Shown here piece by piece: positions 13,709-15,379 of a DNA stretch of 17,538 nucleotides. The stretch is from the UHGV virus genome UHGV-0202355; one strand, given 5' to 3'. A program made the translations under genes and the position numbers. Position 1 is the stretch's first letter. The number at the start of each line of letters is the position of its first letter. This DNA is from a virus. The notes under the pieces are model-generated. The model saw nothing but the letters and a program-made list of their open reading frames with translations, did no database searches and had not been told where the DNA came from.

Positions 13709-14005
13709 TTACTCAGTAACTACCGCGCCTTTCGGTAATTCCATACCGGCAAATACCGGACAACCAGGATGACGATCATCTTCTGTTGCTTCCAGCATTG
13801 ACTCACCAAACCACTCCGTCGTGGCGCGACCATCAGCTGCTTTGTAGTGGAGTAAGTACTGATTTTCGCCACCCGCATACTGAGCGCGAGCTTTAACCTC
13901 ACCCCATTCATCACTGATGCATACTTCCACCAGTTGTGACAGTTCAAACTTAAACGGAACAGCAGCGGCACCAATTACAACCGGTTTGTTTTCTGTTTTT
14001 TCCAT
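13709..14005 (-). CDS. hypothetical protein, about 98 aa, last gene before cos
   Basis: ORF with three consecutive ATGs (14011, 14008, 14005) after GGAG; it begins directly after a terminator hairpin. No recognisable motif. Confidence 0.5.
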   Translation of the reverse strand: MEKTENKPVVIGAAAVPFKFELSQLVEVCISDEWGEVKARAQYAGGENQYLLHYKAADGRATTEWFGESMLEATEDDRHPGCPVFAGMELPKGAVVTE

Positions 14006-14021
14006 CATCATCTCCAGATAT

Positions 14022-14045
14022 AAAAAAGCCCCGCATTTGCGGGGC
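14022..14045 (-). terminator. intrinsic terminator
   Basis: Minus strand reads GCCCCGC-AAAU-GCGGGGC followed by UUUUUUAU (plus strand: A-run 14022-14027, hairpin 14028-14045). Confidence 0.65.
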
Positions 14046-14067
14046 TACAAACAGGCATCACAGCCAG

Positions 14068-14283
14068 TTAGCTAAGTCCGACAGACATAAAATCATCACT
14101 ACCTAAACGATGGGAACCATAACGAACTTCATACTCCCCATTCAATTCAGAGCGTTTAGACTTTGCGCCATCCTCCGTTGCATAAATGCCGACCAGATGC
14201 CAGGGTTTGTCACGTACTACAGCCCAACCCAGAACCCATCCCTGATTATCAGGATCAGCCTTCAGGTTATTTTCTACAAACAT
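14068..14283 (-). CDS. hypothetical protein, 71 aa
   Basis: Internal ATG 14283 preceded by AAGGAG at 6 nt. Translation MFVENNLKADPDNQGWVLGWAVVRDKPWHLVGIYATEDGAKSKRSELNGEYEVRYGSHRLGSDDFMSVGLS. Function unknown. Confidence 0.5.
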   Translation of the reverse strand: MFVENNLKADPDNQGWVLGWAVVRDKPWHLVGIYATEDGAKSKRSELNGEYEVRYGSHRLGSDDFMSVGLS

Positions 14284-14323
14284 AGTGTTCTCCTTTTGGG
14301 TACCCAGAGACATTCTATGTCAT

Positions 14324-14548
14324 TCATGAAATAGGCAACAACGTGGCCGTTACAATCCCCGCCATATTTGCGTTCAGATCACATTCAACAGAAATTTCTT
14401 CATCCGTGGCATCCACTTCATATGTCCGGGAATAACACTCCGTGCATTTACCACTGAAGATATCCTTAACCAGAACACGTCCACGCTGCAAAACCCTGAA
14501 TGGAATCGTTCCGTTAAAGGGCTTTACGGTTACCAGTAATCTCTTCAT
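14324..14548 (-). CDS. hypothetical small Cys-containing protein (C-x2-C ... C), 74 aa
   Basis: ATG 14548 preceded by GGAGGGGAT, the same SD/spacer as terS. Translation MKRLLVTVKPFNGTIPFRVLQRGRVLVKDIFSGKCTECYSRTYEVDATDEEISVECDLNANMAGIVTATLLPIS. Confidence 0.5.
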   Translation of the reverse strand: MKRLLVTVKPFNGTIPFRVLQRGRVLVKDIFSGKCTECYSRTYEVDATDEEISVECDLNANMAGIVTATLLPIS

Positions 14549-14811
14549 ATCCCCTCCGGATAAAAATGCCCCTTGCCGCCCGGGCTGTTGTTCAAAGTTC
14601 ATCCTGATTCGGCAAGATTCAGAATGTATAAGACAAATTGACACACACAGCAGAATTTCATGCTTTCCGGACGCTGGCGCATCCTTCATTTTTCAGCGAA
14701 ATATTCTGCTCTTACAGGCGATCAGTTCTGCAGACACTGCCGGATGCCATCAATCAGCGGACAGGCCTGAGGAGCTGCATCAAATAATTGGCGCAGCCGG
14801 GACTTTACTTT

Positions 14812-15093
14812 TTATTTACTGGTGTGAGTGCGACATCTGGCTATTTCATCCCGGGCTTTACTGTCACCGCGACAGATACAACGCACCGTGTCTCCGGTCA
14901 GTGTGGTAATGTAAACCTCATCCTCTTTTTCTACCGGAATACATGGAGTATTCCCGTCCCGGCAATACTCAATTTTTGCAGCAAGATGAGTGTCACGCGG
15001 ATAGAACTCCAGGCGATACATATCCCCAAGGACATGCACTTCCTCAACCTGGCGACCATCTTCAGTTACCGTAATTTTTTTCAGTGCGTACAT
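14812..15093 (-). CDS. hypothetical Cys-rich small protein, 93 aa
   Basis: ATG 15093 preceded by GGAGGT at 4 nt, immediately downstream of a terminator. Translation MYALKKITVTEDGRQVEEVHVLGDMYRLEFYPRDTHLAAKIEYCRDGNTPCIPVEKEDEVYITTLTGDTVRCICRGDSKARDEIARCRTHTSK. Confidence 0.5.
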   Translation of the reverse strand: MYALKKITVTEDGRQVEEVHVLGDMYRLEFYPRDTHLAAKIEYCRDGNTPCIPVEKEDEVYITTLTGDTVRCICRGDSKARDEIARCRTHTSK

Positions 15094-15125
15094 ACGTACC
15101 TCCGTTCTTTCGTTTTTTGAGCAAT

Positions 15126-15147
15126 AAAAAAGGCCGCCGAAGCGACC
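15126..15147 (-). terminator. intrinsic terminator
   Basis: Minus strand reads GGUCGC-UUCG-GCGGCC (one G-U pair) followed by UUUUUUAUU; plus-strand hairpin 15132-15147, A-run 15126-15131. Confidence 0.55.
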
Positions 15148-15172
15148 TTTACCATTAAGTTCACATCTTCTG

Positions 15173-15379
15173 TCAGGATGTATGGCAATCTCTACAGCAC
15201 CAGTAACACCCATTTGCTCTTGTGTAGCCCAGATTTTTTGCAGCCCTCACAGCTGGCTCGCATGAGTTAAACTCACCCAGCTCCTTACGATTGTTTGCGT
15301 CAGGAAGTCGAAAACAAGTTTCTGTATGAACTTCGTGATCGTTCTGAGCATCTTCAAGAGTGTGAACATAGTACTTCAT
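15173..15379 (-). CDS. hypothetical Cys/His-rich small protein, 68 aa
   Basis: ATG 15379 with GGAG at 8 nt. The protein has six Cys including C-x2-CC-x2-CH at the C-terminus. The RBS lies inside a 9-bp inverted repeat (see findings). Confidence 0.5.
   Translation of the reverse strand: MKYYVHTLEDAQNDHEVHTETCFRLPDANNRKELGEFNSCEPAVRAAKNLGYTRANGCYWCCRDCHTS

Follow-up and report, generated by a model that had tools for sequence, protein, structure and literature searches.

The 17,538-nt stretch of DNA analysed here (referred to as the window) comes from the UHGV virus genome UHGV-0202355 and carries, in the interval between its lysis genes and cos, five small genes that were designated P1 to P5. 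These are mutually unrelated, genuine small genes, and with moderate confidence we regard the interval as accessory DNA of variable content (a 'moron' region) that forms the right end of a lambda-like prophage. Its genes would come from a common pool of cassettes, which enter and leave the slot between the lysis genes and cos by recombination. P1 is set apart by its membership of a widespread, conserved and unnamed protein family which, judging from its conserved residues, is probably zinc-binding. P2 to P5 carry no feature pointing to function.

Gene content and mosaicism of the interval before cos

The five open reading frames (ORFs) are located on the minus strand in the order P1 (15379..15173, 68 amino acids), P2 (15093..14812, 93 amino acids), P3 (14548..14324, 74 amino acids), P4 (14283..14068, 71 amino acids) and P5 (14005..13709, 98 amino acids), each with a Shine-Dalgarno sequence (GGAGA, GGAGG, GGAGGGG, AAGGAGA and GGAG, respectively). 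P5 has two further in-frame ATG codons, up to position 14011. The first-pass annotation of the window, made from the sequence alone, had described five minus-strand ORFs of 68 to 98 amino acids with Shine-Dalgarno sequences between the lysis genes and cos, and they were found as described. Upon comparison with the prophage of E. coli RM13752, the ratio of nonsynonymous to synonymous substitution rates (dN/dS) was 0.08 for P1, 0.11 for P2, 0.12 for P3, 0 for P4 and 0.12 for P5, with dS values of up to 0.59. Since the ratio lies between 0 and 0.12 in all five, they are real genes under purifying selection.

None of the five proteins matched an entry in Pfam, NCBIfam, PADLOC or the sequences of the Protein Data Bank (PDB), which is in line with the earlier statement that no motif could be recognised in them. 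Searches of the PDB with family profiles of P1 and P5 gave nothing either. The Pfam search revealed no homology to bor, lom, ybcV, ybcW or toxins and no lysis family (holin, endolysin or spanin), and the PHROG category was 'unknown' for all five. Each protein matched one PHROG family with E-values from 1e-23 to 1e-56, namely phrog_4298 (P1), phrog_33497 (P2), phrog_2571 (P3), phrog_4280 (P4) and phrog_1935 (P5). All five families are labelled 'unknown function', and membership is therefore uninformative on their role. In RefSeq the homologues of P2 to P5 are named hypothetical proteins, no known RNA was found in the region with Rfam, and a literature search for 'phiP27 L33' or for accession numbers found nothing.

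Morons, extra genes of phage late regions with independent transcription, are known from lambdoid phages, among them bor and lom of lambda and the morons of HK97 and HK022. Like these, the window has small extra genes between late modules, variably present and bounded by terminators. It differs from them in that no promoter is shown in the window and two of the five genes come immediately after a terminator. Two hallmarks of morons are found here: the genes are present or absent between homologous flanking modules, each of them being missing from most related prophages, and own downstream terminators are located behind P1 (T1) and behind P3-P4 (T2). Among 5426 complete E. coli genomes, only five cover at least 80% of the region. 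P1 is present in 13 genomes and P2 in 87, the P3-P4-P5 block was found in 24, and P5 on its own accounts for the majority of the remaining 156 genomes with a match to any portion of this block. The prevalence per gene thus ranges from 13 to roughly 150 genomes, and the genes are found in shuffled combinations. The best E. coli relative, the prophage of RM13752, contains all five genes with a nucleotide identity of 87–99% depending on the gene, but it has three small ORFs that the window lacks, and order and content differ. Compared with phiP27, the window has the segment P1-T1-P2 inserted next to a lipoprotein-like gene. Homologues of P3, P4 and P5 occupy the same interval between lysis and terminase genes in other lambdoid phages.

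The nature of the slot is best illustrated by a metagenomic contig with a P1 homologue of 91% identity, in which the order is holins, GH108 lysozyme, a 66-amino-acid ORF, P1, P2 and, directly behind P2, the LT-II enterotoxin A and B genes (positions 5672-6815). A gene for a Pertussis_S1-like ADP-ribosyltransferase lies 5' of the holins on this contig. LT-II operons have been reported to follow a gene for a phage lysozyme of 181 residues and have been likened to morons (Jobling and Holmes, PMC3252337). The LT-II slot is the same as the one occupied in the window, and the succession of P1-P2 and LT-II confirms it as a hot spot for cargo and a place to look for conversion genes. The first-pass annotation had expected lysogenic-conversion cargo at this position, and the LT-II genes behind P1-P2 in this relative bear that out. 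This position between lysis and terminase genes is also taken by P1 homologues of a Salmonella prophage (53% identity) and a further contig (75%), although the lysis and terminase genes there are of different types.

Genomic context and predicted expression of the five genes

A profile search with P1 returned 241 proteins, and one peptide pattern alone detected at least 583 loci in species-representative genomes. These loci belong to the Bacteroidota, Alpha- and Gammaproteobacteria, Acidobacteriota, Planctomycetota, Verrucomicrobiota and Parcubacteria, among others. Every named member is a 'hypothetical protein', and no convincing Pfam match was obtained for the members of the family. The gene is also easily overlooked: in the 12 genomes listed of the 13 E. 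coli RefSeq carriers, the intact P1 gene (15173-15379 of the window, 5497-5703 of locus L002) has no annotated feature from the Prokaryotic Genome Annotation Pipeline (PGAP), and the homologues in phages Javan384 and Javan420 are likewise unannotated.

In the Gram-positive temperate phages Javan231, Javan384, Javan420, staphylococcal phage 187 and Erysipelothrix phage SE-1, the P1 homologue stands alone. It is co-oriented with the repressor and integrase genes in all five and opposite to the surrounding early lytic genes, and a Vibrio inovirus carries a homologue opposed to its neighbours. Such an arrangement is the classic hallmark of a gene with transcription of its own, probably in the lysogen. 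In the enterobacterial cassettes P1 is co-oriented with the late genes, yet it is accompanied by approximately 80 bp of conserved upstream DNA of its own. This DNA contains a conserved element of 16 nt, TGATCATTATCAATGA (15438..15453, minus strand), about 60 nt 5' of the P1 start codon. In an alignment of five P1 cassettes, whose proteins are 53–91% identical, the core TGAT..TTATC.A of the element is invariant, and the homology to RM13752 starts at this element. It includes an inverted repeat, TGAT-N4-ATCA. The left part of the P1 cassette is marked by this element, which may act as an operator or promoter element. A Fur box was considered 5' of P1 and rejected: the candidate fits only 13–14 of 19 positions, scores no higher than sites arising by chance and is missing in two of the five cassettes.

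Across the 80 genomes surveyed, P1 homologues had heterogeneous neighbours, with no recurrent effector or fixed partner. Repeated synteny was only lineage-specific, with a two-component system in Flavobacteriaceae and with carB in Rhodobacteraceae. At 13 flavobacterial loci the P1 homologue lies 20–600 bp 3' of a response regulator of about 221 amino acids on the same strand, and at no fewer than eight of these the regulator is preceded by a sensor-like protein of about 550–650 amino acids, a context that suggests regulated expression of the homologues in the Flavobacteriaceae. The P1 family spans many phyla without a fixed partner gene, and P1 would probably act through binding to a target common to very different bacteria.

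The first-pass annotation had proposed the five genes as candidates for a host-interaction, exclusion or defence/anti-defence function. That one or more of them, above all P1, acts as a prophage defence, exclusion or anti-defence factor is unlikely, although several observations point that way. The slot holds conversion genes, the homologues in Gram-positive phages are co-oriented with the lysogeny module, and a superinfection-immunity gene (Javan420) or an abortive-infection gene (SE-1) lies on the same strand 1–2 kb from the homologue. In addition, two metagenomic P1 homologues directly precede the gene for a SLATT or a TIR protein. P1 as the partner of a TIR or SLATT effector was nevertheless rejected, as the arrangement was seen in these two metagenomic contigs only and was not reproduced in the 80 genomes. 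Moreover, no PADLOC model matches any of P1 to P5, and the heterogeneous neighbourhood of P1 includes no conserved defence partner, so that the defence part of the proposal found no backing.

Two intrinsic terminators on the minus strand subdivide the interval, both at the places given in the first-pass annotation. T1 (15121..15150, with its stem at 15150..15129 followed by a T-run) is located between P1 and P2. Its intergenic context of 79 nt is not exceptional as a whole (z = −1.2), but T1 is supported by phage phiSTEC1575-Stx2k, where a hairpin with a different stem and the same U-tract precedes the P2 homologue at the same place. The latter phage also has a terminator downstream of the P2 homologue, which P2 of the window has lost. 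T2 (14020..14046, stem 14046..14027 and T-run) follows P4 and immediately precedes the ribosome-binding site of P5. It is a strong terminator of −21.7 kcal/mol (z = −3.2), and none of 200 shuffled sequences folded as well. A third hairpin on the minus strand, with a stem of 17 bp and no U-tract, is found at 13665..13705, just 3' of the P5 stop codon. With −30.8 kcal/mol (z = −5.4) it is conserved along with the cos-proximal DNA in other phages, and it could serve as a protector of the RNA 3' end or as an accessory of the packaging site.

The terminators were earlier taken to split the genes into moron-like units, and as terminators they hold. The units are less complete than this implies, with only about 35 nt between the end of T1 and the P2 start codon and about 10 nt between the end of T2 and the P5 ribosome-binding site. 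These spacings leave no room for a promoter, and P2 and P5 therefore look dependent on antiterminated late transcription. P1, and P3-P4 behind a gap of 263 bp, possibly have their own promoters. As P1 to P5 are co-oriented with the late operon, Q-antiterminated polymerase would read through T1 and T2, and all five would be expressed late. In the lysogen, T1 would shield P2 and T2 would shield P5, leaving both silent. P1 is carried as a self-contained cassette, composed of about 80 bp of conserved upstream DNA, the gene and a terminator, and is the best candidate for expression in the lysogen.

It could also be argued from this orientation that the five proteins are late-expressed helpers of lysis or DNA packaging instead of host-directed cargo, a possibility that we judge distinctly improbable. 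Besides the co-orientation of all five genes with the late operon and the missing room for promoters of P2 and P5, the positions of some homologues agree with it. In Stx2 phages there is an overlap between the start codon of the P3 homologue and the stop codon of Rz, and P5 homologues adjoin terS in phiP27-like and P2-like phages, being located in a P2-like phage between terS and the head-tail adaptor gene. However, each of the genes is absent from most prophages with the same lysis or terminase modules, and none matched a PHROG category of lysis or packaging. The positions of homologues are not constant either: the P5 homologue of Bcep176 lies in the early region, and of the P4 homologues, which occur in mEp237 and in Pseudomonas phages, one is embedded in antisense orientation among the tail genes of a Pseudomonas phage.

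Cysteine motifs, protein families and the predicted structure of P1

The paired cysteines noted in the first-pass annotation are present in P1 (C58xxC61 and C61C62xxC65H66), P2 (C72xC74) and P3 (C35xxC38), where they had been taken to suggest three small zinc-binding proteins. That suggestion survives for P1 alone, the only one of the three that clearly keeps its cysteines and histidines throughout its family. In about 200 P1 members, E16, H18, C22, C40, C58, C61 and C65 are almost invariant, and H15 and H66 are kept in about 96%.

The P2 family is narrow. An exhaustive HMMER search of 1.84 billion representatives yielded 16 clusters, of which 13 near-full-length clusters (three fragments were left out) were aligned with P2 to give 14 members, all of them P2-like. 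No cysteine is invariant among these: C74 is retained in most members, and C44, C51, C72 and C87 vary. The protein of phiSTEC1575-Stx2k is 84% identical to P2. In P3, the cysteines C35, C38 and C55 are kept in the close homologues from E. coli and Stx phages, and all are replaced in the 41%-identical homologue of phage YDC107_1 (alignment of four sequences). In the latter phage the P3-like domain forms residues ~100–170 of a protein of 198 amino acids with an N-terminal helical region (locus positions 2701-3297), and P3 may be the stand-alone version of a domain from a larger protein. The suspected paralogy of the proteins of 74 and 93 amino acids, P3 and P2, had to be abandoned: BLASTP gave no alignment at E ≤ 100, and the profile-profile comparison by hhalign a probability of 0.16%. 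P5 belongs to the family of phiP27 L33, to which it is 90% identical. It has a beta-rich core at residues ~20–77 and one cysteine conserved in the family, and its AlphaFold2 model, with a predicted local distance difference test (pLDDT) score of 49, was too poor for a fold search. P2 to P5 would be non-zinc, beta-rich accessory proteins.

The structure of P1 was modelled by AlphaFold2 from 65 sequences with a pLDDT of 97.7. The model consists of strands at residues 2–6, 15–19, 31–36 and 55–57, a helix at 40–49 and a short C-terminal helix. P1 would be a compact domain of four strands and one helix held by zinc, with a first site made up of H18, C22, C58 and C61 and a second one of C40 and C65, perhaps with H15 and H66. 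Among the ~200 members C40 is lost only twice, both times as C40G, and one of the two proteins, that of Javan231, also lacks C65. From this joint loss one may suspect that C40 and C65 form part of a second site, apart from that of H18, C22, C58 and C61.

A Foldseek search with the P1 model found nothing significant in the PDB or among viral models (BFVD). The best structural match, although a weak one, is the N-terminal zinc domain of Ada (PDB 1eyf and 1u8b; PF02805), which is similar in size. The spacing of the four ligands is also parallel by eye, with H18-x3-C22 and C58-x2-C61 in P1 against C38-x3-C42 and C69-x2-C72 in Ada. On these grounds P1 could be a distant relative of the Ada domain, functioning as a DNA-binding or methyl-phosphotriester-sensing module. 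Sequence and profile similarity is absent, however. No member of the P1 family matches Pfam Ada_Zn_binding even at E = 10, and hhalign of P1 gave 0.3% with the N-terminal domain of E. coli Ada and 0.4% with an alignment of nine Ada sequences. P1 furthermore has four additional conserved Cys/His residues and the invariant Glu16, and the equivalent of the methyl-acceptor cysteine would be a histidine. Together with the empty Foldseek result for the PDB, this makes the relationship very improbable.

A more far-reaching proposal can be formulated for P1 as a cross-phylum family of 68 residues with two metal ions and a new fold. It would be an autonomous gene, expressed in the lysogen, of temperate phages of Gram-negative and Gram-positive hosts and of filamentous phages, whose product would target a universally conserved host component and, for example, modulate a stress or immunity pathway of the host. 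We advance this only as a speculation that is unlikely to hold in all its parts.

Several findings weigh against the interpretation of the interval as an accessory region with cargo genes, and against the part given to P1 in it. A functional homologue was found for none of P1 to P5 by sequence, profile or structure searches. The translational coupling of P3 and Rz implied by the overlap in Stx phages fits a late or lysis-linked role over lysogenic conversion. A scan for promoter consensus sequences lent no support to promoters, with two sites against 4.5 expected by chance, and the single −35/−10 match 5' of P1 has its −35 box in DNA that is absent from the other P1 cassettes. Metal binding by P1 and the assignment of ligands to sites are deduced from conservation alone. 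Finally, many P1 homologues sit among housekeeping genes, so that the family need not have a phage-specific role.

Neighbouring genes, layout of the prophage end and significance of P1

Between the endolysin gene and P1 lies a small lipoprotein-like gene (15438..15632, minus strand; phrog_7528, of unknown function). Its product has a signal peptide with the lipobox LVGC and a mature part of about 35 amino acids with four cysteines, and a phiP27 ORF is about 86% identical to it over 58 residues. The gene sits directly 3' of the endolysin gene, where a spanin would be expected, and no Rz-like partner is visible. In RM13752 and phiP27 it is placed elsewhere in the accessory region, and since its place differs among these relatives, the lipoprotein-like gene is considered cargo too.

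Sequence alignment revealed a second, diverged and truncated copy of the 3' end of this gene at ~14717..14794 (minus strand), inside the 263-bp gap between P2 and P3. The remnant resembles a scar of recombination next to the P1-P2 cassette, left by the insertion of that cassette. A direct repeat flanking the cassette was looked for as well; the repeat finder gave none, and the alignment yielded the copy of the lipoprotein gene 3' end instead. Such scars and the rarity of most of the genes could be taken as signs that some of the ORFs are decaying, functionless remnants, but with dN/dS of 0–0.12 for all five at dS values of up to 0.59, and with intact homologues in distant hosts, this is hardly credible.

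All genes of the window are encoded on the minus strand. Read 5' to 3' along the transcript, two tRNA genes, tRNA-Thr(TGT) and tRNA-Gly(TCC) (within 17249-17402), are followed by two holins, an M15 endolysin, the lipoprotein-like ORF, P1 to P5, a non-coding stretch of about 260 bp, the gene for a DUF1441 small terminase and an ORF of 700 amino acids. Phages of the phiP27 type and Stx prophages have tRNA genes at the same position, upstream of the lysis cassette. Holin 1 (16687..16295), holin 2 (16359..16030) and the endolysin (16033..15650), all on the minus strand, were identified by Pfam and PHROG matches. The small terminase (12758-13336) has its longest ORF from a GTG at 13336, whereas the PHROG and Pfam matches start only at about residue 28–39, and the ATG at 13249 (MDRELKNL...) is the more likely start. 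The 700-amino-acid ORF occupies the place of the large terminase of relatives. The prophage is lambda-like and pairs lysis genes of the phiP27 type with a terminase of the lambda Nu1/gpA type.

The cos cut was placed at 13445..13446 based on the termini of related phage genomes, because the record of phage cdtI has its right end at position 13446 of the window and that of phage Tritos its left end at position 13445. It follows from this position, in agreement with the first-pass annotation, that no other gene separates P1 to P5 from the right end of the virion DNA.

Taken as a whole, the region is unremarkable: small shuffled genes of unknown role are commonplace between the lysis and packaging genes of lambdoid prophages, and each of the five has been catalogued before as hypothetical. 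What is gained is a triage: the claimed zinc motif of P2 fails across its family, that of P3 is lost in its one distant homologue, and P1 is the one lead. The P1 family has no Pfam or NCBIfam entry, and the protein is a tiny, highly conserved and confidently modelled target that has been picked up repeatedly by temperate phages of unrelated hosts. Its characterisation would annotate many orphan genes together and could bring to light a new mode of prophage action on the host.

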